From Naegleria gruberi (taxonomy: Eukaryota), in assembly GCA_000004985.1 (NCBI GenBank), contig GG738926.1: DNA of 64,000 nucleotides. One strand, given 5' to 3'. Below the pieces are notes generated by a model, which made no database searches, was not told the origin of the DNA, and saw only the letters and a program-made list of their open reading frames with translations. Positions 5,901 to 60,025 of the stretch are shown piece after piece; position 1 is the first letter of the stretch, and every line of letters begins with the position of its first letter. Position numbers and translations under genes: made by a program.

Positions 5901-8900
5901 ACAATGTCCTACACTGGCTTTGAAGAAGTGCCAATCGTGTTGCTCAATACTGAAAAACAATACTATGGAAACAAACTCACAATTACTGCTTCTTTTATTG
6001 ACCCGATGGTTGAATATTTGTTGAGTAGTAATAGTATTAGTGTTTCATGGTTTTGTTTTAGAGGTACTTCAAAGACTGGTCCTTTTTCTGCCTATGACTG
6101 TACTTCTCAAACTAAGGAATTAATCATTGGAGAATCTAACCTTATTGAAGGATACCATCAATTCCAATTCACAGCCACTTTGACAAATTCAAAAATCACA
6201 TCCGTTACCAAAACAGCAATTGTGCAAGTTGTTAAAACAAATATTCCAGATATTCTCTTTGACTCTGTTCCTCCAGTTTATCCATCATCAAGAAACTTGG
6301 TATTGAATGCAGTTATTTCTTCTTCCACGCAAATCGGTAGCGTTGTGTGGCAAGTAACCAAGGGTAATTTACTCAATGAGAATATTCTTAGTCAATCAAG
6401 TACTCTCTCATTGGATGGATACAATATCAAATCAACTTTGGTTATTGACAAGTCTTATTTATTACAAGGTGATTCTTATACATTCACTGTTACTGCTTCC
6501 AATGGTATTGGCTCTTCAACTGCAGCTGTTTCAACTGTTATTGATGTAGCTCCAAGAATTGCTTGTCAAGCCTATGACGCAGCCATAACCAATTCCGTTA
6601 TCTATGCTTACTCTAGTGATGTGGTAATTGATTGTGCTTCACTCTCTGACTACTCAATTGCTTCCTATCATGTCGATATATATGCCAACTCAACCAGGGT
6701 AATGACAGTATCTAAAACAATGAAAAAGACTTTTATTACAAAGGTACCATACGGTCCAAATGGAAATATCAGACTGGATGTACGAGCTGTAAACAAGATT
6801 GGATCTATTTCATCTGCTTCTATTGATCTCAAGGTTTCTCTTAAAAATACTGATAACACCCTCGCTGGAAGAATTGGATTTGCTAGTTCTGAATATGAAA
6901 GCAACAAAGCAAGCTTTACAAGATTAGAAAGTGTTGTTACTATGCATTCTTTATTGTTACTTATTATTCAACAAAATTCTGTTAGTGAATTTGCCAGTAT
7001 AGACTCTACAGCCAAAACTACTCTCACCACCTTGATAACCAATATGTTAACTACTTTGAGTGGTCTGAAGAGTATTAGTTACAACGCAGATGACAAATTA
7101 GCTCCTGTTTTTATTCCATTTGCAAATGATGCTTACAGGTTACTTGCTGTTATTTCTCCAACTACAGTGGCTTCCAATGCTGATCTACTCACTTGGGTTA
7201 AATTCTTCATAACGTCATTCAATGATTACAAGACATATTATAGATCTACAGTTGTACCTACTATTTACGACTCTAAACACTTGACAGAAATTGATTCCTT
7301 GATAGGTATTGGCGCAAAGTATATTAGTGATAGTAGTTTCAGTCCATTATATAAGGAAACAGCTATTATTTCCAAATTGATTACTGACGTTACCAATTCC
7401 ACAACAACGACAACCTCCACCATCGTGGATTCCAGTGGTACGGAGACAAGATTTGATATTGTTGACAGAATTCAACAACTGAATGCCAAGACAATTACAT
7501 TCGCTAATTATCCTTCAATTTCTATTTCCTTCCCATCAGATTTCTACTCACAACTCGGTGTTGAAAATTCAGGATCAGGAGTAACCCTCACTTCTGCTGT
7601 TTCAACCTCTAAATATTCCCAACTAGTAAGCCCTTCTGTTGATATTTCTCTTTCTACCTCTTCAGACGCTGTTATTTCTGTGAGTGGATTGCAAGGAAAT
7701 TTGATTCAAATCAATTTTGGCACCTTATCACAACCTAAAGCTAACTTTACCAGTTACAATTATACTTGCAGATTCTTGAATACTACCTCATCACAATGGA
7801 GTCAGTCAGGAGTGTCAAGCTCTATTTCCATTTTGTCAGATGATGGCCAAACTGTCACCTTTTCTCTTTCATGTTTAACTTCTCACTTGACTTCTTTCGG
7901 AGTTGTTTCTGCTATCATCCCTCCAACATCACAATCTAAAACAGTAACAACAGATAATACTGGTGTTGTTGTTGGTGCTGTTTTGGGTACACTCTTGCCA
8001 TTGATTTTGATAGCTGTTATTGTTGTCGTAGTGGTGATAATTGTAATTATTTTATACAAGAGAAAGAAATCTCTCGACTCATCACAAGTTCAAAATGTTG
8101 AATTGGTCAATAAGAATGTTTCAAGTGTTCATATTAGTGACTTCCCTTCAGAAGAAAGCACTCACTTTAAGCAATTGGTTAGTGTATCTTCTGGATCTAC
8201 TAATTCTGATCCACTTGCAAGATATGCTGATATGGTAAAGATTGGACAAGGCGCATTCGGAAGTGTGTTCAAAGGTGTTGATACAAAGCAAGCAGGAAAG
8301 TTGAAGGCCATCAAGGTTATTAGATTTAATTCTGTTGGTGAATTGAACAATATGCTCAAAGAAGGAACTATGCTCATGAACATTGATCACCCACATATTC
8401 TAAAAGTCAACGAGTTTATTATTGACAAAGATAACATTCTCTGTATTGACACAGATTTCTGCGAAGATGGTGATTTGACCAAGCTTACTCTTTCTGCAGA
8501 GCCAATCCCAGAACCAATCATCAAACAAGTAATTTATCAAATGTGTTCTGCTTTGGCCTTTATTCACAACAAGCTCAAGATTATTCACAGAGATGTTAAA
8601 CCACACAACATTTTCTTGAAAGAATTGACAGATTTTTCAGTTCAAACAGTTTTGGCTGACTTTGGTCTTGCTAAACAAGATCAAAACAACAGCATGAATT
8701 CATATGCTGGTACACCACTTTGTAAGTTTTTATTTTTAATTATTTAATTAACAACCAATTAAATAGACATGAGTCCAGAACTTGCCCTTGGAGGTAAATA
8801 TAACTATAATACTGACACTTGGTCTCTTGGTGTTGTAGCCTATCAATTAATGACTAAAGATATCACAACTGCTCTAAGTCATTTGTGCTTAACAGGAGAT

Positions 8901-37403: not shown

Positions 37404-40400
37404 ATGCGAACAATTTTTGTGATATGCATTGCTGTTGTGGCATGGTTTATTCTTCTCTTTCTAACAAGTGAAATCCACTGTCAAACTGTCAAGTATTCAT
37501 TCACTGTTTATCAGAAGGATTTGTCAGGGCCATATTGTGCAGCAAAATCTCCAAATAGTGATGCTGTATACATGTCTGAATATAGTGGACATCGTGTGAA
37601 GAAGAAATCCTATCTAGGTCTTGTTGTTATTGCAGGAACAGGATATGAGGGTTTTAATGGTGACATTTTGGCCAAACAGGCCAAACTGGATAATCCTGGA
37701 GGTGTTCTAGAATATAACAATGAGCTGTATATTATGGACTATGGAAATAATAGAGTGAGAAAGATTAACAGTGAAGGTGTTCTGGTAACAATTGCTGGAA
37801 CTGGTACACGATCTTCAGCAGGTGACAGTAAGTTTTATTTCACACAATTGAATAGACATTCTTTCTTCTTGGCATCATAATCTCACACATTAAAGATGGT
37901 GCAGCTACTTCAGCATCTCTCAATGGACCTTGGGGTATTCATATACCAAGCAATGGAGATATATACATTACAGAATATGTCGGAAATAAGATAAGAAAGA
38001 TTAGTGCATCTGATAATAAGATTTACCTGGGTAAGTGTTTTCAAAGATTATTGTTTATTCATTCCGAAATAATTAGTGGCTGGAACAGGATCATATGATT
38101 TTTCTGGAGATGGTGGCAATGCTGTTAGTGCAAAATTGAAGAGCCCTTGGAGTGTCTTTGTAAATGCAATTGGTGAAATATTTATTGCTGATACGGATAA
38201 TGACAGAATTAGAAAAATTGCAACAAATGGAATTATAACAACTATTGCTGGCTCTGGATCGAGTACTAGTGATGGAGTTCTAGCAACTACAGCTTCTTTG
38301 AAAAAACCAACCTCTGTCTTTATTTCACCAGCAAATGAACTATTCATTGCAGGTATGTGTTTTCACAATTTCATTAATGAATTTTAACATGTCTATTAGA
38401 GGCTGATGGTGGTAGAATCAGAAAGGTCGATCTGTCAACAATGAAAATTTACACAGTTACTAGTTCACTGAATTATCCAACATTTGCATTTGTTGCTGAA
38501 AATAGTGATCTATATATTACAGAGAAAAACAACAACCAAATCAGACTTGGAACAGCTTATTGTGATAGTGGTTATCAAATTAATTCGAATGGAACTATTT
38601 GTAATCCAGTGTGTAATTCACAAATTGGAAGAGCTGGATGCAGTAATCATGGATCATGTACTAGTCCTAATACTTGTACATGTGATACTGGTTATACATT
38701 ATCTGACTGTTCTCAACCTATTTGTTATGGAAAATATGGAAGTACTGCTTGTAGTGGAGCAAATCAAGGAACTTGCTCTGCTCCAGATACTTGTCAATGT
38801 AAGAATGGATTTTCTGGAAGTGATTGTAGTGTTTATTATTGTGGAGGGGTTGTTGCAAGCTCAGCAGGTGTCTGTTCAGGTAAAGGAACATGCTCTGCTC
38901 CAGAAACTTGTTCTTGCCAAACAGATTACGTTGGATCAGTATGTCAATATCCTGTGTGTAACAGCATTCCTTCAAATAACCCAAATGTTTGCAGTGGTGG
39001 TGGTACATGTACTTCTCCAAATTCATGCCAATGCTTTACAAACTATTCAGGAACTCAATGTCAGTACACTACTTGTTCTGGAATAGATAGTACCAATTCG
39101 AATGTGTGCTCTGGTAGAGGAAGTTGTGCAAAATATAATAATTGCACATGCACAGCCAACTTCTTTGGCTCAAATTGTGAGCTCACTCAATGTTATGGAA
39201 TTATTTCAAATTCAGCTTCCACATGCGCTTCACATGGTAGATGTGATGGCTACAATAAGTGTACATGTGATTCTAATTATTTTGGATTGGACTGTAGTGT
39301 AACAAGTTGTTATGGAGTGTGGAGTAATACTTCTAGTGTTTGTACTGCACCAAACAGAGGTACTTGCAATTCCTACAATAATTGTACCTGTACAAACTCG
39401 TATTATGGAACTCAATGTCAAGATTATGATTGCTTTGGAATTAACAAATCTAATAGCTCAGTATGTTCTGGTAAAGGAGCATGTTCTGCACCAAATACTT
39501 GTTTGTGCTCTGATTCTAATTACTCTGGTTCTAATTGTGATGCAGCTGTGTGTTATGGAATTTCAGCAAATGACTCTAGAGTTTGTTCTGGATCAAGAGG
39601 TGCCTGTAACTCTCCAAACACTTGCTCATGTTTTTCAAATTATTTTGGACCTCAATGTCAATATACACAATGTTATGGTATTGACAGTTCCAACACAACT
39701 CATGTTTGTTCTGGTAGAGGTACTTGTTCTGATTTCAATAAGTGTGTTTGTAAAGATGGATACTATGGATCCAATTGTCAACTCAGCAAGTGTTTTGGAG
39801 TTTTATCAAATAGCTCAAATGTTTGCTCAGGTCACGGAACTTGTTCGGATACAGATACTTGTAATTGTGATTCTAATTATTCAGGTAAAAATTGTGATAT
39901 TACATCATGTTATGGAACCTCAAGTACAAATCCACTGGCATGTTCATCTCATGGCTTTTGCTCGTCCTATAATAATTGCACCTGTTCATCAAACTATTAC
40001 AGCCAACAATGTCAAGAGTTCAATTGTTTTGGTGTGAATAAGGCATCTACAAGTGTATGTTCTGGTCATGGTACTTGTTCAGATATTGATACATGCTCCT
40101 GTACAGGAAACTGGATTGGAGGAAATTGTAATCTCACAACCTGTAATGGTGTTTGGAATTATAATTCATCTGTTTGTTCTGGAAACGGTGTTTGCTCATC
40201 TCTGAATAATTGTACATGTAATGTAGGATATTATGGTGCTAATTGTGATTCCTTTGATTGTTTTGGATCTGTATTTACAAACGAAGGTATTTGTGCAAAC
40301 AATGGTTCTTGTACAGGTCCTGGTGTTTGTTCCTGTATTGATGGATATTCTGGATCTCGCTGCCAATATCCTATTTGTTATGGCATTAGTGGTGGTAGCT

Positions 40401-43400
40401 CAAGTGTCTGTTCTGGAAATGGACAATGTATTGATAGGAATATATGTTCGTGCAGTGCTGGATGGACTGAAAACACTTGTAATGTGACAACATGTTCTGG
40501 TAAAAGAAGTGATAATTCATTAGTTTGCAGCTCTCAAGGTTCATGTGTGGGACCAGATAATTGTTATTGTAACAAAGGTTACACTGGACCTAATTGTGAA
40601 TTTAATGTCTGTTATGGAAAGAGTCAGAATGATTCTTCAGTTTGTTTAGGCAGAGGTAAATGTTTGAAACCAGGCGAATGTACTTGTAATACTGGATTTA
40701 GAGGTACAGAATGTCAATATTATCAAATTGATTTTGATGAGAAATTGGCCACTCTCAAGCCAACCCTAACTTCAGTTCTACAATATTCATACCTTTTCAA
40801 TGGAACATGTGAAACCTTATTCGAAAGTAGTGATTTACCAATAATTGGTGAATCTCCAATATGTTTATGGGATAGTAGCAAGATGATTATTTATTTAGGT
40901 TTTGGAACTCATCTTCAAACTGGCAATTTACTAAGAGTGAAGAATAGCAACTTAGCATTCTTTGTTGATACAAGCAACTCTCTTTCCTATACTGGATCTG
41001 GTATTACGCTCAAGAAATTGATGACAAATGTTCCAACAAGTAATCCTTTACCTCTTAGACCTATTGTTGATAGCAATTTCCAATCCTACACCAATTTCTC
41101 AAGTTTAGTTTGGTCATGTATTAGTTGTTCTACAAGTTTGAATGATTACTTGAAATCTCAACAACGTGAATATCTCTACATTCCTCCATCCTACTTGAAA
41201 TCTCTATCAGCATTATATCTGCAATTAGCAGTCTCAAATTTTGCTTCTAATTCCAAAGTTGCAAGTCTTTCATTTACGTTTTCTCAATCAGCTGCTCCTA
41301 ATCTTGATTTAATTACTGACCTGAATAGTGATTCACAAATTTCTTGCACAGGATATGACTGTATTATAGAAACAGAACCAATTGGTTATGGAAACAATGC
41401 AGGATTATTCTTAGGTTCATACCCATCAATCAAATACAATGTCTACCTGTCCAGATTTTTCTACACAGACAGCAGTGGCATTTTGGGAAGTGGATCTACT
41501 ACTGGAAGTGTCTTGCTATTGGCCAAACATACACAATCCACAACTTCAAAAGATTTCTTCATTCAATATTCATTCAATGCCTATGAAAATAAGCTTCCTG
41601 TTGTTATTTCAGCAACAAATCCTGTCTTTTCTCCTTCATCTTTCATTAGATTTAAGGCAACAATCTTCAATCCAATGGTATTCGTGAAAACCGTTCAAGA
41701 TACATATTATCTTTGGAAACTCTTCAAATTTGACGAAACAGGAAAAGCTAAACAAATGAGCACTGAAATTTACATTGATCTGAATTATGATGAAGTAGTT
41801 GTACAGAGAGAATTGGAGGCAGGTACATATTTAGTGAGTCTTAATGCAGTAGCTGCTTATGGATCTACTCTCATGAATACTACCTTTACTGTATTGAACA
41901 CAACAGATAGATTGGCTTCCATCAGTTTTTCTCCTGTGCCAACAATAGTTTCAATTTCAGAAGATTTGACAATTACTGCAACAATTAATGGAACCATAAC
42001 ATCATTTGAATGGATTCAAATTTCTGGAAGGATAAAACCATTGTGCTCTTTGCAAAAAGTAACAACACAACCAAGTGAAAATATTACACAAAGCGAATTG
42101 ACTATAACCAGAGATTGTCTTTTTGAAGGTGAAATTTATATATTCAAGGTTGTTGCTAACAATTCAAATGGCATTTCGTCTTCAGCTGAAATTCAAACTC
42201 AAACAGATATCTCACCAAGTATTCATTGTGATTTTTATTCTACATCTGAAGATGGCTCTTTCGTTGCATTGGACAGCACCTTGCTAATGACATGTAGAAA
42301 TGGAGCTAAGGATACTATCAAATCTTACACAGTTGAAATTCATTATAATGGAGAAAGAAAGTTTATTGTTTCCAATACTCAAAAGAGAAACCTCTATTTT
42401 AGAATGCCTTATCTAATTGAAGGAAGCCAATTGGTTGTCAGAGGTCTCAATTTTTATAATACTGAAGTCATTTACAGAAAGAATTTAACATCAACTCTGA
42501 CTTCTACTGACAAGGTTCAACTCTTTATTGATGGTTATAATAGTATTACAACTAGTGAAACAACAAGTTATTTTGGAGCTATTAATTCTTTAAATTCTCT
42601 CTTGACATTATTTGAATACCAACAATTTGATTCGCTTGAAAATAAGAACTCTCTCCAAACTACTTTGAAATCCATGCTCAGCCTAATCTCTAATCTGAGA
42701 GCTACTGGTGTCAATGTTGATGACAAACTCACTGCTCTCTTACTTCCTCCAGTGTATAGAATTCACAAATACTTGGATAGTATTAATGGAACTAGATCAA
42801 GTGATGATTGGAGAGTTGATGATCTCCTTTCTTGGACATCTTACTTTACTGAGTCTATTCTCAACACCCTTCAATACTATTACTCAACTCAATGGAAATT
42901 CCTTATTGATCAAATTCATTTGAATGAATTGGATGAACTTATCGAACTTGGATCGAGTATGAATTCTGAAAAATTTGTTCTCGTTCAAGTTCAATATGAA
43001 TTATTAACAGATAGCTTGAATGGAGTCGCATCTAAGAAATCACAAACACAGCTCTCTAATGGTATCTTGCTAAGAGAAAAATTGGACTCTGTCGATTCAT
43101 TGAGAAGTCACATTATTAACTTGTACTATTCCAACACTAATGTTTCGATTCAATTCCCATCTGATGTTGCTGATACTTTAGCTTTTGGAGATACAACCAC
43201 AGATAATTCACTCAATTCATTTGTTAAAGTTTCCAAGACTACAAACTCAAAGATTATTGGTGTCATGACAAGTGTCAATATTCAAACTCAAAAATTCAAA
43301 GAATTGGAAATCCAAAACCTTACCACCTCCATCAATATTGCATTCACAGGCTCTCAATATCCTTCCTCCAATGTAACTTGCAAATATTACAATTCCTCAT

Positions 43401-44760
43401 CTCAAGAATGGCTCACTAATGGTGTTCAAACTTTGATTTCTTCTTCCAATAATTTGGTTACCATTTCTTGCTTGACAAATCACCTTACAACATTTGCAGT
43501 TTTCAAGAATGATATTATTTACATTCCACCTACAAATTCTACTACTAATGGCGTACAAACTTCTGATCCAGCTCTTGCAATTGCTCTTGGAATTATTCTT
43601 CCACTTTTGGCAATTGCAATAATTATTGTAATAATTATCATTGTTGTGATTCTGGTATTGAGATATAGAAAGAAGAAACTTTCCTCTGAAGTTTCCAATA
43701 CTTCAGCCATTGAACTGAGAAATGAAAATAAGAGAGGATTATTCGATACTGACATTTCAGACTTCCCTTCAGAAGCAAGTGTCTATTTCAAACATTTGAA
43801 TTCTTCCTCAATGGCTTCAACTGTTTCTTCCACATCTTCTTCTAATGATCCATTCTCTCGTTACAAGGACATGGTTAAAATTGGAGAAGGTGCTTTTGGT
43901 TCAGTCTTTAAAGTTATTGACACTAAAAATAACAATAAGGTGAAAGCCATCAAAGTTATTCGATACAAATCAGTGGAAGAATTAAACTCCATGATGAAAG
44001 AAGGAACTCAATTAATGAACATTAGCCATCCAAACATTCTCAAAGTGAATGATTTCTTTGTGGAAAAGGACAATTTACTATGTATTGACATGGATTTCTA
44101 TCCACAAGGTGATTTGAGTACCTTAATCAACCAACAGGAAGATTGTAAAGAAGTACACATCAAGCAAATTATTTATCAAATGTGTCATGCTTTGCATTTC
44201 ATTCACAATGATTTGAAATTAATTCACAGGTAAGTTTTTTAAGTTTTTTTATGGAATTTCAACAACAAATTCAATTCACAGAGATGTCAAACCTTCAAAT
44301 ATTTTCATCAAGGTATTAAACGGAAATGTCATCCATACAGTATTGGCAGACTTTGGTTTAGCAAAGGATAATAAGAATTCAGCAAGTATGAGCTTTGCTG
44401 GTACTCCACTCTGTAAGTATTTTCATAACTGTCAAAATTCATAAACATCAAATAGACATGAGCCCAGAATTGGCATTAGGAGGTAAATATTATGCCAACA
44501 CAGATGAATACTCTCTCGGAGTGACTGTCTATCAATTAATTACCAAAGACACCATGACTGCCATCAGTCACTTGTACATGTCAAAAGACGCAAAAGAAGT
44601 ACAAACTCTTACACGAAAACGTTTGAAGGAGAGTGGTGATTATTCTGATAGATTAATCGATATCTGTCTACAAATGTTGGAAAAGGATAACTGTGCACGT
44701 CCATACGCTCAAGATATTTTGGAAAATTCATACTTTAATGATATTAGAAAGATTAGATAA
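37404..44760 (+). CDS. Receptor Ser/Thr protein kinase with an NHL-repeat + about 18 tenascin-type EGF-repeat ectodomain (paralog of 2951..9125), 6 exons
   Basis: Exons are 37404..37827, 37896..38030, 38077..38352, 38400..44229, 44282..44412 and 44456..44760. The introns start GTAAGT, GTAAGT, GTATGT, GTAAGT, GTAAGT. It has a signal peptide (MRTIFVICIAVVAWFILLFLTSEIHC) and NHL repeats (YIMDYGNNRVRKINSEGV, YITEYVGNKIRKISAS, FIADTDNDRIRKIATNG). About 18 EGF repeats, a long S/T-rich ectodomain, a TM helix (LAIALGIILPLLAIAIIIVIIIIVVILVL) and a kinase domain (IGEGAFGSV, AIKVI, IHR|DVKPSN, DFGLAK, GTPL-Y-MSPE) follow. Confidence 0.8.
38600..40715. repeat. Tandem array of about 18 tenascin-type EGF repeat units (period about 93-105 nt) within the second receptor kinase
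   Basis: The reiterated motif is C(Y/F)G..S.N.S.VCSG.G.C.....C.C...Y.G..C. The spurious His/Val/Leu-rich ORFs in the track (38484..39086, 39312..40037 and others) are alternate-frame products of this repeat. Confidence 0.75.
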
Positions 44761-48283: not shown

Positions 48284-48987
48284 ATTCAACTATTATCTAT
48301 ATTCGATTCTTCAATAAATTAAATGAAATTCTTTAGCAGCAATAACAAAAGAGTATGTTCGTGCCCGTGATAATGTTTGCTGCACAATCTTCCGTAATGT
48401 AAAGAGTCAAATTGCGCTCTTTTTGTTTTTTTTAAAGTGTTGTTTTGCCCATTTTGCGTCGTGTTGAAGTTTTGATGATCTTTGTCAAGCAACCAACAAA
48501 AAAACAACAAAACGGCGGAAAATGATGGCGCTGAAAGCTAGGGAACGAAGCGTGGTGGAGGGAAAATATCGAAAATGACGCCAACACGTTGAATGGATTT
48601 TGGCAGTGAAATTGGATGCTTAACGAATTGTGTTTGTGACGGCTGTGGAAAGTGTTGAAAATCAGTGATGGATGACATTTTTGGGTGAGTCTTTGTTTGG
48701 GAAGACATGGATTAATATGGTTAACTGTTACGCAATGTAAGATTATATCAAAATATCAGTTGATAGAGCTCAAAAGTAGTAGGGAATGGATTAATACAAC
48801 CATGTATCTATGTTTTTAAAACGAAACCTTACAATATTTCACAATTTTTTATATTGAATTTCAAGATTGACCAAATTTTTGTAAACTCTCATTTTCCCAC
48901 CAAATTGTGATAATAATTGTGCTGTTAGGGAAGGTCGCATAAACAATACGAAAGTCTCTTCGTGGGGTGAAGAAACCACCAAAAAAA

Positions 48988-49629
48988 ATGTCTCTAATCA
49001 TTCCAATACTTTGTCAACTGGCTTACATTCCTTTTATTTACTGGTTCGTAGAGTTGGCACAGAATAATTTATACCTCAAACTCACTGGAGCGTAAGTTGT
49101 TAAATTTTCACAATGATATATATTAATATATGCCAAATGTCATCTTTGACACTTCATCATCATGATGATATTTGATTGTGTGGAACCAAACAACGCGCGT
49201 TTTGACAGTTACGGATGGATCTACCCAACCTCAGAATACAATTACTTTGAATTTGCTTCCATCAAATCGTGGGCAATTTTACCAATTTTATTTTGGTCAA
49301 TTTATTACTTTTTCTTACTTCCAAAGAAGATCAATATCTGGTTGGGTTTTTTTATTAATGGAACAGCTGGTTACATTACTGAATTCATTGTTGGATATGT
49401 TTCGTCTGTAATCTTTCACGAAACTATGCAATATTGGCCTAATTCTAGATTTGCTTTTGTTGGAGGTTTGGGTTGTTATTTGTTGTGGCAATTTGATGCC
49501 ATGCTTTACTATTTGTTAGTGTTCAAGATGCCAAACATTTTGATAAAGAGTTTAGAATCGTATAGTGAAAATACGAAATCAGTTTCTAGTGGAGGCTCCA
49601 CTGCTAAGGTTCATCAAGTTAATCATTGA
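48988..49629 (+). CDS. Multi-pass membrane protein, probably 2 exons (about 175 aa)
   Basis: The proposed model is exon 1 at 48988..49091 (MSLIIPILCQLAYIPFIYWFVELAQNNLYLKLTG), a GTAAGT..CAG intron at 49092..49208, and exon 2 at 49209..49629. The alternative is the unspliced ORF 49162..49629 from the track. Four to five hydrophobic helices are predicted. Confidence 0.4.
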
Positions 49630-49916
49630 TGAAAATGAGATGAATAAATAATCTATTGATTATTGTGAAAGTTTGTAACAAACCTTTCGTTTAGTTTTGG
49701 AAATAAATGGCGGAAAGGCTTCGATATCTTTTAGTAAAATCTGCCGAGCGTTTTGTTCATTTCAATCCAGATAATTCAAATACCGGTATCCTCTTCCATC
49801 TTTATCATTTAATTCAGAAAGAAAAGTTTGGTTTGTGTTAAAGAATGCAACTGTCAGTTAGTAAGCTAATAGTTAATATTTATATTTACAAAAAGTTAAT
49901 ATTCATACTGAAATGT

Positions 49917-49990
49917 AGCCCGTCTAGCTCAGTCGGTAGAGCGCAAGGCTCTTAACCTTGTGGTCGTGGGTTCGACCCCCACGGTGGGCG
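49917..49990 (+). tRNA. tRNA-Lys (anticodon CTT); as I read it, 1 nt longer than the two minus-strand copies
   Basis: The body GCTCAGTCGGTAGAGC-G-CAAGG-CTCTTAA-CCTTG-TGGTC-GTGGGTTCGACCCCCAC-GGTGGGC-G is identical to the copies at 57051 and 59869. As printed, the 5' end is GCCCCGTC versus GCCCGTC in the other copies. Downstream T-runs (TTTTTT) look like a Pol III terminator. Confidence 0.8.
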
Positions 49991-50090
49991 ATTCTCTTTT
50001 TTCTCTTTTTTCTCTTTTGAAAAGAATAGTTTAATTTTTGGAGATATGAACTTTGCAAATATTGAGCTATTGATATGTAGCTTTTGAAAA

Positions 50091-50867
50091 TTATTCCGTT
50101 TCTTGACTTTTTTCAATTCTAATAACAGCAAAATCCGTTTTCTCTGGTAATATTTCGGCAATCTTTGTATTTTGAGTAATGTTAGAGAATATGAGTGTTT
50201 GTATTCTTGTATATGATAGCATTTTAGCAATTTCTTTCAATTCTTGCTCAAATCCCATTCCCACCATAAAATCAATATCATCCAATACAAGTGAAATCAA
50301 ATTGGAATGCATAAATCTTGTTGTACCGAATAGGTGGTCCAGTAAGCGACCTGGAGTGGCTATCACAACAGAACAACCCTTTCCAAGAGTTTCAACTTGT
50401 TCTTGTAGCGATTGAGCACCAACTAACAAACAAGAAGTTTGTGGCATAAATGTCATTAATGATTTACAAACAGCATGGGTTTGAATGGCCAATTCTCTAG
50501 TAGGACTCACAACAATAACACCTGTTCCATTTCTTGGTTTGAATTTAGCTCTATGTAATGCTTCCAGACATGGCAAGAGGAAAGCCAATGTTTTACCACT
50601 TCCAGTATTAGCTTGAACAAGTAAATCTTTACCATCCAAAGCAATTGGAATTGAATGGGATTGAACAGGTGTCATATAAGTAAAAGAAAGTTCTGATAGC
50701 GCTCTTGTGAGTGGTTCACACAAATCAAGATTAGTAAATTGGTCATCGGTTAAAAAAGTTGAATTGGATGTGTTTGTAGATATTTCTTCTTTGGCTTCAG
50801 AATTGCTGGTTTCCGATAATGATCCTACAACATCATTCTCTTCCAAAAGGTAGTTGAATGTAGACAT
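50091..50867 (-). CDS. DEAD-box helicase-like protein consisting only of the N-terminal RecA-like domain (about 258 aa)
   Basis: Real ATG at 50865-50867. It has a Q-motif (TPVQ), motif I (ANTGSGKT), motif Ia (PTRELA) and a GG. Motif II reads VLDDID rather than VLDEAD. There is no clear SAT motif and no C-terminal helicase domain: a stop follows ..[10 protein letters not shown], and no donor site or downstream exon is visible before the tRNA at 49990. Confidence 0.55.
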
Positions 50868-50975
50868 TTTTTTTGTTTTCAACTCAACTGGCTTTTAGAA
50901 AATGTTCAATGCTTGTTCTTAATCCAACCATAGCATAAATAAATATATGGTGAATATATTTCTTATGAACAAGAA

Positions 50976-51048
50976 GCTGGCGTAGCTCAGTCGGTAGAGC
51001 GTTGGTCTAATAAGCCATTGGTCGCCGGTTCGATCCCGTCCGTCAGCA
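50976..51048 (+). tRNA. tRNA-Ile (anticodon AAT)
   Basis: The sequence is GCTGGCG-TA-GCTCAGTCGGTAGAGC-G-TTGGT-CTAATAA-GCCAT-TGGTC-GCCGGTTCGATCCCGTC-CGTCAGC-A. The acceptor stem pairs (one G-U), the GCTAATAA anticodon loop is as in eukaryotic tRNA-Ile-AAT, and there is one mismatch each in the anticodon and T stems. A T-run follows. Confidence 0.75.
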
Positions 51049-51510: not shown

Positions 51511-53799
51511 TTACAGGTCCAACATTTCCATACACTTTTCCTTGATTGGTACAATTCTATGAGCTCTTCTATCTATGGTTTCAATCTTTTCGACAATTTC
51601 CATACATTTCTTGTATTGTTGATCACTATAACACTCAACTGCATCAGCATACAAATCACAAACATTGATTTCTGCCTCTGGAGCGTTCTCAGTTTCACAA
51701 AGGAGCTCATAAATTACTAATGGCTTGGTCTTACCCTTAACAGTAACTGAATCTAATGGAACACAGAATAATCTATTCGAAACTTGAACATAAGTAGCTT
51801 GACTGATGGCAAGATAAGTTCCATAATTCTTATTAATTCCTTCAATACGAGAAGCAGAGTTGACATTATCACCCAATGCTGTATAATTCATTCTTTCAGG
51901 AGTACCAACATTTCCAATAAAGGCAGATCCTGTGTGAACTCCAATTCTTGTCTTGAATTCTGGAAGACCCTTCTTTTCCCATACTCTATATAGATCTTTC
52001 AATTCTTTTTGAATTCTGAGTGCTGAATTACATGCTTTGTAAGCATGATCTTCAATTGCGAATGGAGCATTCCAGAATGCCATGATAGCATCACCTAATT
52101 TCAATGTCAGTTATCAATGAATAATTGAAACTTACCAATAAATTTATCGACTGTACCTCCAGATTCAATAATGTGATGGGTTGCTCTTTCTAGATATTCA
52201 GAAAGACATTGAACAAGAGTATTAGGATCCATCTTTTCACAAATTGTTGTAAAGTTTTCAATATCTGAGAAGAGCAAGGTCACATTCAATTCTTGCACTC
52301 CAAGACATGCTTCCTTTGAACTTTCTAATAAAGCTTTTACAAGAGAGCTAGGAACATATTTGTTAAATGAACGAAGACCAAATTTCATCTTGTCAACAGC
52401 TAATTGAATTTCTTTGACTTCTGTCAAGAAACTTCTACGTTGTTTTTTTGAAGAAATTTCCAATCTAGCAATCTTGTTAATATCCTTACTAAGGGATGAT
52501 AATGGAAAGGTAATCAACAAGGAGAACACAAAGACAACTGCAGCACCGAATATCATAATTCCCAAACTGATCAACAAACCATTTCTGAATTGAATCCAAA
52601 TGTCTCCCAACACGTCAATTTGTGGAGAGAAGATTACAATAATCCAATCCATTCCATTAATTGAGGATGAGTAACTGTATGGAATGGCATTAACGTCAAC
52701 ATCATAACCGTTCCATTGAATACTAGTAGAAGCAGTTCCATTCAATTTCTTCAAATCATACAAACTTAATAATTTCTGGTAACCTTCTTTTACAAAAGTT
52801 GTGTTGCCTTCGAGTGGAGTTGTCTGAACTGGAATTCCATTCTTAATAATGTATGAAGGATCAGAAGGAGATGAAGAACCAATCAATAATCCGTTTCTGT
52901 CTATTAACATGGTCACTGCATTCTTTGAAACTGGTGTGCTTTGCATGAAACTTGATAATGACCTGCCGAATGTAACAGAAGACCAAGCATAGTGGAATTC
53001 TCCATCAACCCAAAAAGGAGTCACATACGAAATGTAAAAATCTGGATCGACCTGATTGTAACCAACATCCGTCCAACTTTCTTTTGGATTCGAAACATTC
53101 ATCAATTTCCAATAGGGTGATTGAGTGTTATCAACACCAGGAACGTGTACAATCAAATTAACTTCACCACTTGGAGTAACCACAAAGAAATCAGCTCCTT
53201 CCTTTGACACAAAGAGTCCATTAGCAAAACTGTAAATGTTCTGAACTCCCCATGCATAGTAACCTGTCTTGTCTCCTACTGAAGTAAATATAGAATCTGG
53301 ATTCATACCCTTGAAAACATTATACATGTGATTTACAACTAAAGTGGATTGATCTGTTGTGTTGAATAGTTAAAACTTAAAAAACAGTGCTCTACTTACT
53401 ATGCAGATCCCACTTGAATGTCATGAATTGATTCTTATAAATAGTTGACAAATCAACGGCTGGCTTGAATTTAGTATTAAGGTAGTTTGCAAGATTCTTC
53501 GCATAACCTTCCTTTAATTTCGTGTTCATGTCCAACACTGATGTATTACCCGTGTTAAAGCCAATGAACCAGGTAATAATCAAAACGACGAGAACAACCA
53601 ACACGAGAACACACACCAGCAACAATCTAATAGAGAATAAAAAGTTGAGGAAGGAATAGATAGACCGAACAATGAAAGGAGTCTTATCTTCCCCGTAGAA
53701 TAGCGAATCGACAGAATGTGCCTTGTGGAGAGCATATACATCTGCCTTGGAACTGTTTTGTGGTGTTACCACTGGTTGAATACTTGGTGATTTGACCAT
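51511..53799 (-). CDS. Receptor-type class III adenylate/guanylate cyclase (two TM segments flanking an extracellular sensor domain), 3 exons
   Basis: Exons on the minus strand are 53400..53799 (ATG 53797-53799), 52136..53338 and 51511..52094. The introns are 53339..53399 and 52095..52135, both GTAAGT..TAG. TM1 is LLLVCVLVLVVLVVLIITWFIGF. An extracellular domain of about 300 aa and then TM2 (LLISLGIMIFGAAVVFVFSLLITF) follow. The cyclase motifs are VTLLFSDIENFTTICE, KFIG|DAIMAFW (split by intron 2), RIGVHTGSAFIGNVG and YTALGDNVNSASRIE. Confidence 0.75.
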
Positions 53800-54325
53800 G
53801 GAGTGTTGTATTAATGCAAGTAAATTCAATAGGCACAAGGTGTATAGTAGTTCAGGCAACTCAATGGTTGTATTAAGGGTGATTGTTGGTTTGTTTTTTA
53901 TGTGATTCTAACGTGGAGGAATATCTTGATCAAGTACATTCAATCAGCACGTAAACACTCATCATCTACAGTGAATCAGTGATGTGTGGGGTGAATTAAC
54001 TGAAGCAGGCTTCACTACGTTGAAAACCAAACACTTCCAACGTGCTTGGCAGCAACTGAATATTAAGGTACAAGAAAACCAATTTAAGCGAAGAGTCAAA
54101 CTTCCCCCTTAGGATATAAAAGTATATATACGGAGAGTAATCCATGAAGGGCAACATCGATTCTTGTAATATTTCCCCTCTGCTTATTTGGAAGATGCAG
54201 CTATCGGAACTAGATTATAAAAATTAAAGTCTAGATGAACTTGTTGATTCTTAGGAGAAATGAAACACATTTGGTTTATTTCATTCTTATTTAGTAAGAA
54301 TTTATGTTGATCAGGTAAAACGCAA

Positions 54326-55729
54326 CTAGTTTTGAGCAAGCAAATTCATTCCATACTCAGTCATGTAAGCGAAATACTCGGCTCTTTCTTCTTCTGTGAA
54401 AACGGTAACTATTGGACCAGCATAGCCCAATGGCTTCATCAATTGATTGACAACACCTCGAATTGTTTCATTGTTGAAAATCATAGAATGGACTGGAAGT
54501 AACATTAAGGCAATTTCTTCATCAGCTCCAATGACAGTTGAATCTTGCAAATCAGCATTTGACAAGAAGGTGCCATCCTTAACTCTAATGTATGCAATCA
54601 CATCAGGTCCAGTTAATAATGGTGAAGATTGAAGTGAACTGTAGACAAACAAGTTTTCGTTCTGATTGTAAACAACCACCTGATTGTTTGGATTGGTATT
54701 GTCAATGATAGTAACACTTCCCAAATCAAAACCTCCAGAAGTCACAATTTGTTGCTTGAATGAACCAACAACAACCACTTTGCCATATTTGAGCGATTCT
54801 TGCAAAGTAGCAAGTGGATTTTCACTAGTGGATGCTAGTTTGGACATGTAGCCAGCAGCCAATGCAATTGGAATACCTCCAGGAACTGAATAATTCTTAC
54901 ATTGTTGACCTGTCATTTTCCACAATGCCAATCCAGCAACTGAGTTGAATTCACTTGATGAAATGATTGGTCTAGCCAAAGCTTCAACAGCACTTGCACT
55001 GTCCAATAAGATGGCCACTGAATCAGCTGGGGTGTTGGCATTTGACAAGATGGAAGGATTTGTGGATATTCCATTAGCACTGTATGATGTCATTGTGAGT
55101 GTTGGAACAGCTCTTCCCATGGAATCAGACAAAATTACTGGAATTCCAGTTTGAGCAGAAACCAGCATTGGCATGAGAGAATTCAATGCTCCAACTTCAA
55201 CTGGAACAAGATAATCAACATGTTGGCCTTGTGATTGAACAACGTATTGATTGAATGCATTGTAGGCGTTTTGAGCAATGCAAAACTTGGATGAATCAGT
55301 CATGGCAGTTGGAGCTCCCTTAATATAAGAGAAGTTAAACACATATTCATATGTAATGTTGACTTACCATACCAGCAACGACTACTCCCAATTGATCATC
55401 ATTCAAGACAGTTGGATCGATGAGTTGAATTCGTGGGACAAGATTTTCATCTTCCATATATTTAACAAGAACTCTTCCAATTGCAATCTTTAATTAACAA
55501 GCCGATGATCGGAATGATAAGTGTCAAATATATTATTTAAATATTATTAATAAATTGATGAGAATCAACCTACACTGCCACCACCTCCACAGCCCATTAA
55601 GGCTGCTCCGTACATGATTTGTTCCAACTTTTCACTAGTAAGGCCATAAACAGTAGCATAGGCACGATCAATTCTTTGAATACTTTGAGGAAGATAGAAT
55701 AATTGAGGATTAGGTGTTGATGAGGACAT
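54326..55729 (-). CDS. Conserved hypothetical protein, possibly of the DUF917/hydantoinase-like family, 3 exons (about 422 aa)
   Basis: Exons on the minus strand are 55574..55729 (ATG 55727-55729; MSSSTPNPQ...MGCGGGGS), 55368..55487 and 54326..55318. Intron 1 (55488..55573) has a GTAGGT donor and intron 2 (55319..55361) a GTAAGT donor. The family assignment is from memory of the GGGG and GxPV motifs only. Confidence 0.5.
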
Positions 55730-56504: not shown

Positions 56505-57050
56505 CACTGGGAAGACTTCTCTATTGCCTATTATCTCTCAAAATGTAAAGACAAGAATGGGTTGAAAAATTAGCAACGAACTGAACTGAGACGAAGATCA
56601 CTTGAAATACAATCAATTAATATGCAGGGTGTGTTCTCATTCAATTCGTTCAGAATAAGTTCATTCAATTAGAGAAGGTGATACTTCCAAAATCAAACAT
56701 GGACAAGATAAGTTAGTGGATGAGTTATTGAATTCTATTAGTATGGAAAGGTTGAAATTTATCCTTGATTGCTTTTTTACAACACATCCCCAGTTGATTA
56801 ACAAAGCATTTAGTGTTTTGCATGAATCAAAGATTGAGAAGGCAGTGCCAGGTTTCATCCTTCAATAAGAGAGAGACAGCTTTGGCAGAAAGCAATGGTT
56901 GCCAAGAAATATCAAATTCTTTACTCCAGAGCATATTTATTGTGAGACTGTTCATGGAATCAAAAAGAGATTTAATCTTTAAGGGAATAAAAAGTTAACT
57001 TTACAAAAAAGATCTATCCAAATGAATAGTCGAAAAAAGTAAAAGAGAAT

Positions 57051-57123
57051 CGCCCACCGTGGGGGTCGAACCCACGACCACAAGGTTAAGAGCCTTGCGC
57101 TCTACCGACTGAGCTAGACGGGC
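57051..57123 (-). tRNA. tRNA-Lys (anticodon CTT)
   Basis: The reverse complement is GCCCGTC-TA-GCTCAGTCGGTAGAGC-G-CAAGG-CTCTTAA-CCTTG-TGGTC-GTGGGTTCGACCCCCAC-GGTGGGC-G, 73 nt with a canonical cloverleaf. Plus-strand A-runs upstream act as its T-run terminator. Confidence 0.85.
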
Positions 57124-57482
57124 TACATTTCATTAACAATATCAACTTTTTGTAAATAAAAATACTATTTTGGGTGGTGGTAAATCTCCAATATTAAGAC
57201 GTCACCTAACAATGGTTCATCAAATCAAGTTTTGGTGTGTATTGGTGGATCTAATCAATCAATTCTTTCGCACTTAATGTGGAGTTAAATTTTCAGTGAT
57301 GAATTATTCCAACTCGTTGATGGTCTCATTCTTCTCTTGCTTGGAGTCCAATCGGAACAAATGATAGCATTAAATCCGTCATTAGTTCCGTTCGCAATTG
57401 ATGTCGCCAATCCAAGGGAGTTAATTGAAATGTTTCAAGGAACCTTAACAAAAAAAGCAACAACATCAAATTCTGTTGAAAT

Positions 57483-58286
57483 ATGCAAAATAGTCTGATG
57501 AAATATTTAATTGTAATCTTGCTATTAACAATAGCTTTCTCAACAAGAAAAGTTGATGCTCTCAACACAGCTGGCAAAGATGTATCCAAGTGTTCCTATC
57601 AGAATACTGTGAAATTGGGAACAACCATGACTCTGTACTGGAATGTCCTGAAGAATCCAAGTGATTCCACCAACCACATTCTTGAATTTGGTTTAATATG
57701 CGTCAATGCAGGATATTGTGCTATTGGATTTGATCATCCTCTTGACAAGGGAATGAATTCCATTGACACCATGTTTGCCTACACAATTTCTGGAACTGCC
57801 TATTTGAAAGATGCCTATTGTAAGACCAAACATGTGTTTCCAACAATTGATGAATTGAGTGGAGGAACCAATGATTATTTGGAAACCAATGGAGGAGTCA
57901 TTGATGGTCAGTATCATTATAGATGGAGCAGAAAAGTCAATACTGGAGATTCCCAAGATGCCACTTTCAAGAATTCAAATGTCTATGTCAGTTGGGCATA
58001 TCACACCAGTTTAACTTCAATTGGTGCTACTCACTCTGAAGCTGGACAGAACGTTCAGGTTAATTTTCTTGCCAACTCACCAACAGAAACTTACCTTTCT
58101 GGAATGATTTATAATTCTTCGTCTCCCTATCCTACTGATTCTTCTAATGATTCTGTGGTAATTGGTGTTGGACACAGATATCATTTATATGCATTGGCCA
58201 TTGCGGTCGGTTCAATGATCATTCTTGGCTTGATTTGTACCTACTTGGGTTCCATCCAATGTAGTTACTCACTTTTTACTTTATAG
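57483..58286 (+). CDS. Secreted/TM-anchored DOMON-like domain protein, 267 aa
   Basis: Real ATG and a signal peptide (MQNSLMKYLIVILLLTIAFSTRKVDA). The DOMON-like core is ..MTLYWNV....ILEFGLICVNAGYCAIGFDHP...MFAYTISG.. A C-terminal TM helix follows (LYALAIAVGSMIILGLICTYLGSI). It ends only 52 bp before the ferric reductase gene on the same strand. Confidence 0.6.
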   Translation: MQNSLMKYLIVILLLTIAFSTRKVDALNTAGKDVSKCSYQNTVKLGTTMTLYWNVLKNPSDSTNHILEFGLICVNAGYCAIGFDHPLDKGMNSIDTMFAYTISGTAYLKDAYCKTKHVFPTIDELSGGTNDYLETNGGVIDGQYHYRWSRKVNTGDSQDATFKNSNVYVSWAYHTSLTSIGATHSEAGQNVQVNFLANSPTETYLSGMIYNSSSPYPTDSSNDSVVIGVGHRYHLYALAIAVGSMIILGLICTYLGSIQCSYSLFTL

Positions 58287-58338
58287 AAAGGTAACCAAGT
58301 TAATTCCATATGATTTTCTAGGAGTTTCCTACATTAAC

Positions 58339-59757
58339 ATGTTCCTAGATTTGACAGTTGGCGAAATGATTGTCATTTCAGTCTATTGGGCATTGATGGT
58401 GATCTGGTTCAGTTATGGAGTTGTAAATCAAGCAGATCCTTTCATTCCAAGAAAGATTTCTTCTGGATATGTACAAATGATCATTTTGAATTACATTTTC
58501 CTGTTCATTCCTGTAACTAGATATAATGTCTTGCAAGCATTATTCGGTATTTCATTTGAAAGGTCTTTGAAATTCCACAAGTGGCTTGGTTTTATGATTT
58601 TTGGATTTGCTACTGGACATGGTGTGACGGAATTCGTTTCATTCAGAGATAACATACCTTACATGTTCTCTGCAGAGGATCAATTCCCACTATTTGGAAT
58701 AATTGCTTGGTTATCTCTTGGATTATTATTGCTCTTCTCTTTCAATCCTATTAGAAGAAAGCTCTATGAATTATTCTTAGTTTTCCACATTCCTCTAACT
58801 TTGGTCACTGTCACCTTCTCAATCATTCATGGAGAAGGTTGGATTAATTTACTTCCTTATATGGGATTTTCAATTATTTTAATGGTAATTGATTGGGCTT
58901 TGCGTTTAATTATTGGATTTGGAATTCCAACCAAGTTGACTCAGATATCATACGATGAGGATTCTGAAGTAACAACCTGTGTATTTGAAAAAAGATTCTT
59001 GACATTCTTCCATGATCCAAACCATGCTCACTATGTTTTCGTCTACATTCCACAAGTTTCCATCTACCAACTTCACCCAATGACAATCAGTTCCTCTGTA
59101 AAGCTTGAAAATGGAAATCATCAATTCATATGCCATATTAAACGAATGGAAGGAGGTACATGGGCAGCCAAGCTTGCTCAATTGGCTAAATCTAAGAAAA
59201 TGGTTTCTGAATACTACGGAGTCAGAGTGGAAGGAGCATATGGCAACTTGTCAATTCCATTCTTTGCAAAGAAGAATGATCAGAAGAGAACCATTGTATT
59301 CATAGTTGCGGGAATTGGAGCAACTCCTTGTAATGCTATTTTGACAGCACTAGAAGATCCAAAATATAACGATCCAACTCCTTATAAGGTATATGTTAAC
59401 TTTACAATGAGAAATGAGGCAACTTTGGCCCAAATGAGTAAGATTATGCAACAGAAACCAAATGTTGAATGCTCATTCTATGTAACTGGTGTTAAATCTG
59501 TGAAAAAATCAATAGAGTTAATGGAGAAGGGTCAGGATAATAGCGAAGACAAGAGATTTGTCAGAGGATCAAGACCTAACTATGTGGAATATTTGGAAAA
59601 GATCAAATCTCAAATTATTCAATCAAAATCACTTGAATATGTTTCTGTTTTTGCTTGTGGTCCATCTAAAATGATGAATGCAGTGCATAATGCTGTGTGG
59701 ACATGCAGTGATTCATCTTGCCGATTCGAGTTGCACAAAGAAGAATTTGAATTTTAA
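58339..59757 (+). CDS. Ferric reductase / NADPH oxidase (NOX)-like transmembrane oxidoreductase, 472 aa
   Basis: Real ATG. It has six TM helices with paired heme-ligand histidines (HKWLGFMIFGFATGHG ; FLVFHIPLTLVTVTFSIIHG). The FAD-binding motif is HPMTISS and the NAD(P)H-binding motif is IVAGIGATP, with C-terminal CGPxxM (FACGPSKMM). Confidence 0.8.
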   Translation: MFLDLTVGEMIVISVYWALMVIWFSYGVVNQADPFIPRKISSGYVQMIILNYIFLFIPVTRYNVLQALFGISFERSLKFHKWLGFMIFGFATGHGVTEFVSFRDNIPYMFSAEDQFPLFGIIAWLSLGLLLLFSFNPIRRKLYELFLVFHIPLTLVTVTFSIIHGEGWINLLPYMGFSIILMVIDWALRLIIGFGIPTKLTQISYDEDSEVTTCVFEKRFLTFFHDPNHAHYVFVYIPQVSIYQLHPMTISSSVKLENGNHQFICHIKRMEGGTWAAKLAQLAKSKKMVSEYYGVRVEGAYGNLSIPFFAKKNDQKRTIVFIVAGIGATPCNAILTALEDPKYNDPTPYKVYVNFTMRNEATLAQMSKIMQQKPNVECSFYVTGVKSVKKSIELMEKGQDNSEDKRFVRGSRPNYVEYLEKIKSQIIQSKSLEYVSVFACGPSKMMNAVHNAVWTCSDSSCRFELHKEEFEF

Positions 59758-59868
59758 AATTGGTTTTCTTTTTAATAAAATCACCAACATCAACGTTATG
59801 AGTACATTCCTTCAAAACAAAGCAAACAGTGTGTTAGTACAATCATATTCTAAAGCCAAAAGATAAAT

Positions 59869-59941
59869 CGCCCACTGTGGGGGTCGAACCCACGACCACA
59901 AGGTTAAGAGCCTTGCGCTCTACCGACTGAGCTAGACGGGC
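59869..59941 (-). tRNA. tRNA-Lys (anticodon CTT)
   Basis: It is identical to the 57051 copy except for one acceptor-stem substitution (G67->A), which changes a U-G pair to U-A. It is 73 nt. Confidence 0.85.
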
Positions 59942-60025
59942 TACCTTTCACATTGAATATCAACTTTTTATATCCTAAAACTTGAGTTTTTGTAATATTT
60001 TGTTTTTTATTTTATTATCACATCA

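Follow-up and report, generated by a model that had tools for sequence, protein, structure and literature searches.

What becomes of a DEAD-box helicase gene that encodes only the first half of a helicase: is it retained as a protein with a different purpose, or is it a remnant whose reading frame happens to be open? This question is raised by NAEGRDRAFT_54205, a short gene of Naegleria gruberi on contig GG738926.1 (assembly GCA_000004985.1), of which we analyzed a stretch of 64,000 nucleotides, referred to as the window in the following. To our knowledge, DEAD-box proteins are normally viewed as obligate two-domain machines, and single copies of their first RecA domain (RecA1) have been studied only as laboratory truncations. 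An earlier note, made from the letters of this DNA alone, had described the gene as a DEAD-box helicase reduced to a stand-alone N-terminal RecA domain with degenerate catalytic motifs, and had offered two explanations for it, a pseudo-helicase with a regulatory role or a decaying pseudogene.

The gene and its flanking tRNA genes

The open reading frame (ORF) that is called mechanically at this locus starts with TTG and spans positions 50091..50882 on the minus strand. The earlier note had adopted this span, which is correct as a mechanical call but has to be shortened at its 5′ end: translation in fact begins with the ATG at 50867, just before which lies a run of A. From there, the complete coding sequence (50091..50867, minus strand) runs uninterrupted through 258 codons to a TAA stop codon at 50091–50093, with no frameshift or internal stop. 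Its 258-aa product is 100% identical to a Naegleria gruberi protein (EFC36759.1 / XP_002669503.1 / D2W2K2_NAEGR) encoded on a 174,974-bp scaffold. This protein is already annotated as ‘predicted protein’ or ‘uncharacterized protein’, so that the sequence itself is not new; its locus tag is mentioned neither in the literature that we searched nor in the supplements of heterolobosean genomics papers.

In its composition, the gene is coding-like. The GC contents of the first, second and third codon positions are 0.44, 0.38 and 0.23, and the overall GC content of the reading frame (0.35) changes sharply at both ends, to 0.24–0.26 in the immediate flanks. The window does not contain a single N, which excludes an assembly gap at this locus and thereby also an assembly gap as the cause of the truncation.

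The gene is flanked by two tRNA genes, both of which lie on the plus strand. A tRNA-Ile(AAT) gene (50976–51048) is located 108 bp upstream of the ATG and is divergent from the reading frame, and a tRNA-Lys(CTT) gene (49918–49990) follows 100 bp past the stop codon. The earlier note had given the latter distance correctly; to be added to it is that the tRNA-Lys gene lies on the opposite strand and is convergent with the reading frame. It is one of three tRNA-Lys(CTT) copies (49874–50000, 57041–57167 and 59866–59972) that share a common unit of 107–127 nt with 93–95% identity. This unit consists of the 73-nt tRNA together with flanking sequence of about 44 nt on the 5′ side and about 10 nt on the 3′ side, and the copy beside the DEAD ORF (127 nt, 49874–50000) is inverted with respect to its two counterparts. 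That the 5′ flank is conserved may reflect either a Pol III promoter element located upstream of the tRNA or a trace left when the tRNA gene was duplicated. A segmental duplication around the tRNA-Lys gene can be dismissed as the cause of the truncation, because the repeat stops short of the reading frame; it is possible that a breakpoint near the tRNA-Lys gene was part of the truncation.

Beyond the tRNA-Lys gene, a small multi-pass membrane protein without a Pfam match is encoded on the plus strand (48967–49629) and converges on the DEAD ORF. Its gene has two exons, of which the first appears to end at a GTAAGT 5′ splice site near 49091–49096 and the second corresponds to a 155-aa ORF (49162–49629). 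Beyond the tRNA-Ile gene, a minus-strand gene (51511–53327) encodes a dCache_1 domain and an adenylate/guanylate cyclase in two ORFs that join at 52104/52107; the split in the cyclase domain (‘...VDKFIG / DAIMAFWNAP...’) has the appearance of a short intron and not of a frameshift. Between this gene and another tRNA-Lys gene lies a minus-strand ORF (53392–55342) with S-Me-THD-like N- and C-terminal domains (PF06032/PF20906). This family is found mostly in bacteria, and the ORF is a possible candidate for horizontal transfer. Adjoining DOMON and ferric-reductase (FRD/NOX-type) ORFs on the plus strand (57483–59757), with a tRNA-Lys(CTT) gene on either side, are probably one gene with an intron. 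Finally, two large plus-strand ORFs of 1658 and 1930 aa (3771–8747 and 38441–44233) contain many teneurin-like EGF repeats and a C-terminal protein kinase, which suggests that they encode receptor kinases; since both ORFs end within the kinase domain, further exons are likely to follow. RGS proteins are also encoded in the window. Together with the EGF-repeat receptor kinases, the cyclase and the DOMON and ferric-reductase ORFs, they agree with nuclear DNA of N. gruberi as the source, and so do the inferred short intron with GTAAGT and the tRNAs, which are of the eukaryote type.

A single RecA1 domain of the Has1/DDX18 subfamily

NAEGRDRAFT_54205 consists of one complete RecA1 (DEAD) domain and ends seven residues past the last strand of this domain. 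Pfam matches the DEAD family (PF00270) at residues 71–234 with an E-value of 4.7e-40 and 137.5 bits, at a cut-off of 26, and beyond DEAD/ResIII it detects no further domain of note. The Pfam match, the complete RecA1 fold and the lack of a second domain thus bear out the earlier description of a stand-alone N-terminal RecA domain.

Within the DEAD-box proteins, NAEGRDRAFT_54205 is clearly derived from the Has1/DDX18 subfamily. The best named matches in both a protein search and an exhaustive HMMER scan are all DDX18/HAS1 proteins, with 43–50% identity. When scored against the sequences in the PDB, Has1/DDX18 entries reach 183–195 bits, compared with 131 bits for DDX10 and at most 113 bits for all others. 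Has1/DDX18 structures, among them Has1 in pre-60S particles and the crystal structure of the human DDX18 DEAD domain (3LY5), also rank first in a fold search, with an rmsd of 1.2–1.6 Å and TM-scores of 0.90–0.92 when normalized to 3LY5.

The AlphaFold2 model of the protein has a mean pLDDT of 86 and a pTM of 0.83, with pLDDT values above 90 over most of residues 41–230, although this confidence is largely inherited from homologues and is no proof of protein stability. As modeled, the protein is a complete RecA1 fold with the truncation exactly at the domain boundary: according to the AlphaFold2 secondary structure, the last RecA1 β-strand, AVIRI (residues 247–251), is followed by only a seven-residue tail, EKSQETE, before the stop codon (50094..50129, minus strand). 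At the other end, residues 1–43 (50739..50867, minus strand) form an extension that is, by composition count, acidic and rich in Ser/Thr (9 Asp and Glu, 1 Lys and Arg, 14 Ser and Thr). Its first 23 residues have pLDDT values below 50, and the Lys-rich N-terminal region of the retrieved Has1/DDX18 sequences is missing.

Intact and altered motifs

An alignment with its relatives shows which of the helicase motifs NAEGRDRAFT_54205 has preserved (all coordinates refer to the minus strand). The Q motif region, comprising the aromatic F44 and FTYMTPVQ at residues 62–69 (50661..50738), motif I or Walker A with the sequence ANTGSGKT at residues 86–93 (50589..50612), and motif Ia with PTRELA at residues 122–127 (50487..50504) are all intact, in agreement with the earlier note, and so is motif Ib with TPGRL at residues 171–175 (50343..50357). 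The second position of motif I, an Asn in NAEGRDRAFT_54205, is a variable site in the family. Between motifs I and Ia, the stretch KFKPRNGTG (residues 108–116; 50520..50546) agrees with the Has1/DDX18 consensus.

Three other motifs are altered. The GG doublet has become GA (residues 150–151; 50415..50420). Motif II reads DDID instead of DEAD (residues 196–199; 50271..50282), just as the earlier note had read it; here, the catalytic Glu is replaced by Asp (E197D), and the next conserved Arg by Phe (R200F). Motif III, which had been thought unrecognizable, can be recognized by alignment, but it is broken: FSATQTTK has changed to FS-N-I-TQNTK through an Ala to Asn substitution and a one-codon in-frame insertion, leaving S-N-I-T in place of S-A-T (residues 228–231; 50175..50186). 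Both changes are peculiar to this protein. Among 377 aligned relatives, DDID occurs once, namely in NAEGRDRAFT_54205 itself, and the other 376 have D-E-x-D; likewise, of the 333 relatives aligned at motif III, NAEGRDRAFT_54205 alone has SNIT, and the remaining 332 show an uninterrupted S-A-T. The possibility, considered in the earlier note, that DDID is the norm of a family that is still active is thereby ruled out. With regard to the features of a DEAD-box helicase, NAEGRDRAFT_54205 accordingly has the Q motif and motifs I (AxTGSGKT), Ia and Ib, whereas it has neither D-E-A-D nor S-A-T nor a second RecA domain (Helicase_C, PF00271), which would carry motifs IV, V and VI.

The missing second half

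The protein ends at residue 258, right after RecA1, and contains neither the Lys-rich terminal extensions nor the C-terminal DUF4217 domain (PF13959) of Has1. In a tblastn search of the whole 64 kb, a query comprising RecA2 and the C-terminal domain of Has1 returned only noise (E > 1). We also built a Has1 HMM of 500 positions from 60 full-length Has1 proteins and ran it, with filters switched off, against all six-frame segments of at least 10 aa. Its sole match across the window is the NAEGRDRAFT_54205 ORF itself, which covers profile positions 16–233 with an E-value of 1.2e-74. All other six-frame segments have E-values above 4, with no RecA2/Helicase_C or Has1 C-terminal domain among them, and DUF4217 is found in no frame of the 64 kb. 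The earlier claim that the C-terminal helicase domain is absent therefore holds for the entire window in both searches. A spliced downstream exon that encodes helicase domain 2, which would have overturned the description of a single-domain protein, is ruled out by the same searches, as nothing rises above noise in the window, which extends 50 kb to the downstream side of the gene and 13 kb to its upstream side.

The immediate surroundings of the stop codon give the same picture. The next downstream gene, on the plus strand, ends at 49629 and thus only about 460 bp from the stop codon. As RecA2 and the C-terminal domain need about 800 nt or more, there is no room for them in this gap. Nor is there a convincing GT-AG intron at the end of the reading frame, where the nearest GT is part of GTCAAG, unlike the GTAAGT in the neighboring gene.

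Relatives of the truncated form

The protein search covered matches no longer than about 1.75 times their query, with a maximum of 451 aa for the 258-aa protein. Among relatives of this size, none is more than 50% identical to NAEGRDRAFT_54205. With the nearest-match protein as a query (307 aa, matches of up to 538 aa), fungal and metagenomic Has1 proteins were retrieved, and with the C-terminal half of NAEGRDRAFT_54205 (120 aa, matches of up to 202 aa), 11 short, mostly bacterial fragments. The exhaustive HMMER scan covered 1.84 billion representatives of clusters at 50% identity, a library in which NAEGRDRAFT_54205 is its own representative. Here, the protein matches itself with 557 bits, and the next best match reaches 199 bits; the top representatives are Has1 proteins of Plasmodium, Entamoeba, plants and fungi. 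A metagenome scan found only generic Has1-like loci with 35–46% identity and no close locus. Hence, neither the proteins of up to 451 aa nor the 50%-identity representatives nor the metagenome loci include an orthologue of the truncated form, and NAEGRDRAFT_54205 may be young or strain-specific.

Uneven constraint along the reading frame

In a set of 78 non-redundant Has1 relatives, we found 64 near-invariant columns (at least 97%). NAEGRDRAFT_54205 violates 11 of these (17%), while the family mean is 0.7 and the maximum 6, so that it has diverged much further than any of the family members in the sample. The changes are G146C, G151A, E157Q, N166S, E197D, R200F, L202V, P218S, R222I, L226I and A229N, and they cover the GG doublet, motif II, motif III and the residues around them. 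All of them fall into the C-terminal half of the domain: the N-terminal half, with Q, I and Ia, has 29 near-invariant columns and keeps every one of them, whereas 11 of the 35 columns of the C-terminal half, with GG, Ib, II and III, are changed, a difference that yields p = 6e-4 in Fisher's test, for a split that was spotted in the data before it was tested. An order statistic, the one-sided chance that all 11 changes lie within the last 35 of the 64 columns (C(35,11)/C(64,11)), likewise gives about 6e-4, and at the rate of the C-terminal half, the chance of observing 0 of 29 would be 2e-5.

Neutral decay is expected to strike invariant and variable sites, and both halves of a gene, equally. 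The variable columns of NAEGRDRAFT_54205 are off consensus in 61% of cases in the N-terminal half and in 73% in the C-terminal half, whereas family members average 29% and reach 50% at most. Given the 61%, the N-terminal half is not simply young or unchanged overall.

The second line of evidence is the reading frame itself. In a neutral simulation of the coding sequence, which was restricted to substitutions and used the base composition of the window and a kappa of 2, a stop-free ORF was left in 15%, 2% and 0.2% of runs at 10%, 19.5% and 32.5% amino-acid replacement, respectively. For comparison, of the 64 sites at which the parent must have been intact, 11 (17%) are replaced in the gene. Indels, if simulated, would lower the open-ORF figures further; in the conserved core, the gene has a single indel relative to the family, and this indel is in frame. 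Taken together, the constraint pattern, the open ORF, the coding-like composition and the truncation at the fold boundary argue against a long-decaying pseudogene.

Discussion

The explanation that we prefer, and that we consider to have about an even chance of being correct, is that NAEGRDRAFT_54205 is a lineage-specific, truncated Has1/DDX18 paralogue that is kept as an ATP-binding but non-hydrolyzing protein. Judging from the constraint pattern, a copy of Has1 would have lost RecA2, would thereby have been released from Has1 function and would then have stayed under purifying selection. The same pattern suggests that the retained function uses the face formed by the Q motif and the P-loop, and that it does so without hydrolysis or inter-domain coupling. 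The likeliest roles would be those of a non-catalytic adenine-nucleotide-binding module, or of a decoy or competitor for a partner that binds the RecA1 face of Has1.

This proposal is consistent with the way in which DEAD-box proteins work. Their ATPase site and RNA clamp form only once RecA1 has been closed over by RecA2, which contributes motifs V and VI, and the catalytic base is the Glu of the DEAD motif. A structural study further describes how the terminal Asp of DEAD interacts with an Arg in motif V, and states that closure of the cleft is required for an active ATPase site (Schutz et al. 2010, PMC2948006). From this mechanism, the missing RecA2 and the E197D replacement, we strongly infer that NAEGRDRAFT_54205 would be unable to hydrolyze ATP or to unwind RNA; having lost both RecA2 and the catalytic Glu, it is predicted to be neither an ATPase nor a helicase. 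It may plausibly still bind an adenine nucleotide, because the adenine-stacking Phe, the Gln of the Q motif, the whole P-loop and the first, Mg-coordinating Asp of motif II (D196) are intact. The released sites include those for hydrolysis and for communication with RecA2, as would be expected if RecA2 was lost and a function of the nucleotide face was kept. Since the Lys-rich N-terminus, DUF4217 and the tail are all missing, a Has1-like seat in pre-ribosomes would not be expected for this protein.

One could go further and imagine a stand-alone RecA1 ‘half-helicase’ that binds ATP or ADP without hydrolyzing it and that was selected in the N. gruberi lineage, either as a nucleotide-sensing regulator or as a decoy. 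It would compete with full-length Has1 for a partner that binds RecA1 and might, for instance, adjust ribosome biogenesis in this way. We put this more specific scenario forward tentatively and think it rather unlikely in this form; were it true, it would be a rare single-domain neofunctionalization of a DEAD-box protein.

That the gene is instead a non-functional relic is an explanation to which we give real weight, while doubting it somewhat. It would then be a partial Has1 duplicate whose 3′ half was removed by a rearrangement and which has been drifting since, with a reading frame that is open by luck, by youth or by periodic gene conversion of its 5′ half from the parent. Such an origin would fit the degenerate catalytic residues, which are unique in the family, and the missing RecA2 and C-terminal domain, as well as the failure to find an orthologue or close relative in searches that were able to detect one and the lack of expression evidence in the literature and supplements that we looked at. 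Moreover, the probability of an open ORF by chance is not negligible at low divergence (the 15% at 10% replacement), and a 5′-half gene conversion by a divergent parent would yield the same asymmetry of constraint. However, this conversion has to be added ad hoc, and a drifting duplicate does not readily account for a reading frame with its own ATG and a sharp shift from coding-like to flanking composition at both ends. Nor does it account for 0 of 29 against 11 of 35 changed invariant columns (p ~6e-4, with the split spotted before testing) when the variable columns of the same N-terminal half are 61% off consensus, for a sole indel that is in frame, or for a truncation precisely at the fold boundary. 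On the strength of this asymmetry, the intact ORF, the in-frame indel and the truncation at the domain boundary, we favor the pseudo-helicase of the earlier note and disfavor its decaying pseudogene.

Two further explanations appear very improbable to us. NAEGRDRAFT_54205 could belong to an ordinary helicase gene for two domains and represent its 5′ part, while the second half is supplied by a distant exon, is provided in trans by a separate gene or was lost through an assembly error. The break does lie exactly between the RecA domains, where a reassembly is possible in principle, but no frame of the 64 kb contains a Helicase_C or DUF4217 signal, the introns inferred from ORF breaks in the window are short, the next downstream gene, which is on the opposite strand, ends at a distance of about 460 bp, and there are no runs of N. 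Even with a partner, DDID and SNIT would cripple hydrolysis and coupling. Equally hard to credit is a role of the locus at the DNA or RNA level, for instance as a transcribed spacer or a non-coding RNA between two Pol III genes, in which the ORF would be incidental. It is true that the ORF occupies the 985-bp interval between the two tRNA genes, but the conserved ATP-binding residues, the codon-position pattern of GC content and the kept frame are protein-level signals.

What is new here is modest: a candidate for a natural, RecA1-only and catalytically degenerate copy of Has1 that appears to be under residual constraint. If the non-catalytic paralogue that we prefer is indeed expressed and selected, it would be a small and tractable case in which a helicase has become a pseudo-enzyme. 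Such a case would show which RecA1 residues are needed in the absence of hydrolysis and coupling, with the Q motif, the P-loop, Ia and Ib being kept and GG, DEAD and SAT being released, and it might point to a RecA1-binding partner of Has1. If the gene is a relic, our findings are limited to a remark on how the N. gruberi genome is annotated. In both cases, NAEGRDRAFT_54205 is a member of the Pfam DEAD-domain superfamily but should not be annotated, filed or counted as an RNA helicase.

Comparison with known systems

The closest known system is Has1 in yeast and its human counterpart DDX18, nucleolar proteins of 90S/pre-60S ribosome biogenesis (PDB 8esq_D, 8i9p_CE, 8fkp_SW, 3LY5). NAEGRDRAFT_54205 resembles them in a RecA1 domain of 43–50% identity with a fold within 1.2–1.6 Å, in the KFKPRNGTG stretch and in the intact motifs Q, I, Ia and Ib. 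Unlike them, it has no RecA2 with motifs IV–VI, no DUF4217 and no Lys-rich N- and C-terminal tails, and it carries DDID for DEAD, SNIT for SAT and GA for GG.

In its extent, the protein is nearly equal to the crystallized construct of the DDX18 DEAD domain, 3LY5 (258 vs 262 aa), with residues 21–239 aligned to residues 30–249 of the construct. Isolated human DEAD domains of this kind fold autonomously and were crystallized with ADP, AMP or AMPPNP bound (Schutz et al. 2010, PMC2948006), the DDX18 domain with phosphate (PMC2948006). NAEGRDRAFT_54205 would be expected to act like such an isolated domain, as a nucleotide-binding RecA1. These constructs are, however, laboratory truncations of active enzymes with intact DEAD and SAT motifs, whereas NAEGRDRAFT_54205 occurs naturally as a gene and has motifs II and III altered.

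Among inactive helicase domains, the C-terminal cassette of Brr2 offers a parallel. This cassette binds ATP without hydrolyzing it and regulates the active cassette. It has in common with NAEGRDRAFT_54205 that the nucleotide site is kept while catalytic residues are degenerate, and that a regulatory or scaffolding role is possible. Yet the inactive cassette of Brr2 has retained its two RecA domains and forms one protein with the active cassette, whereas NAEGRDRAFT_54205 has a single RecA domain and is a separate gene.

The human DDX11L and DDX12P loci, lastly, are truncated duplicates derived from DDX11, a DEAH-type DNA helicase. They carry disabling lesions or are non-coding transcripts. Like them, NAEGRDRAFT_54205 copies only part of a helicase gene and lies at a new locus; unlike them, it has an uninterrupted reading frame that encodes exactly one domain and along which constraint is uneven.
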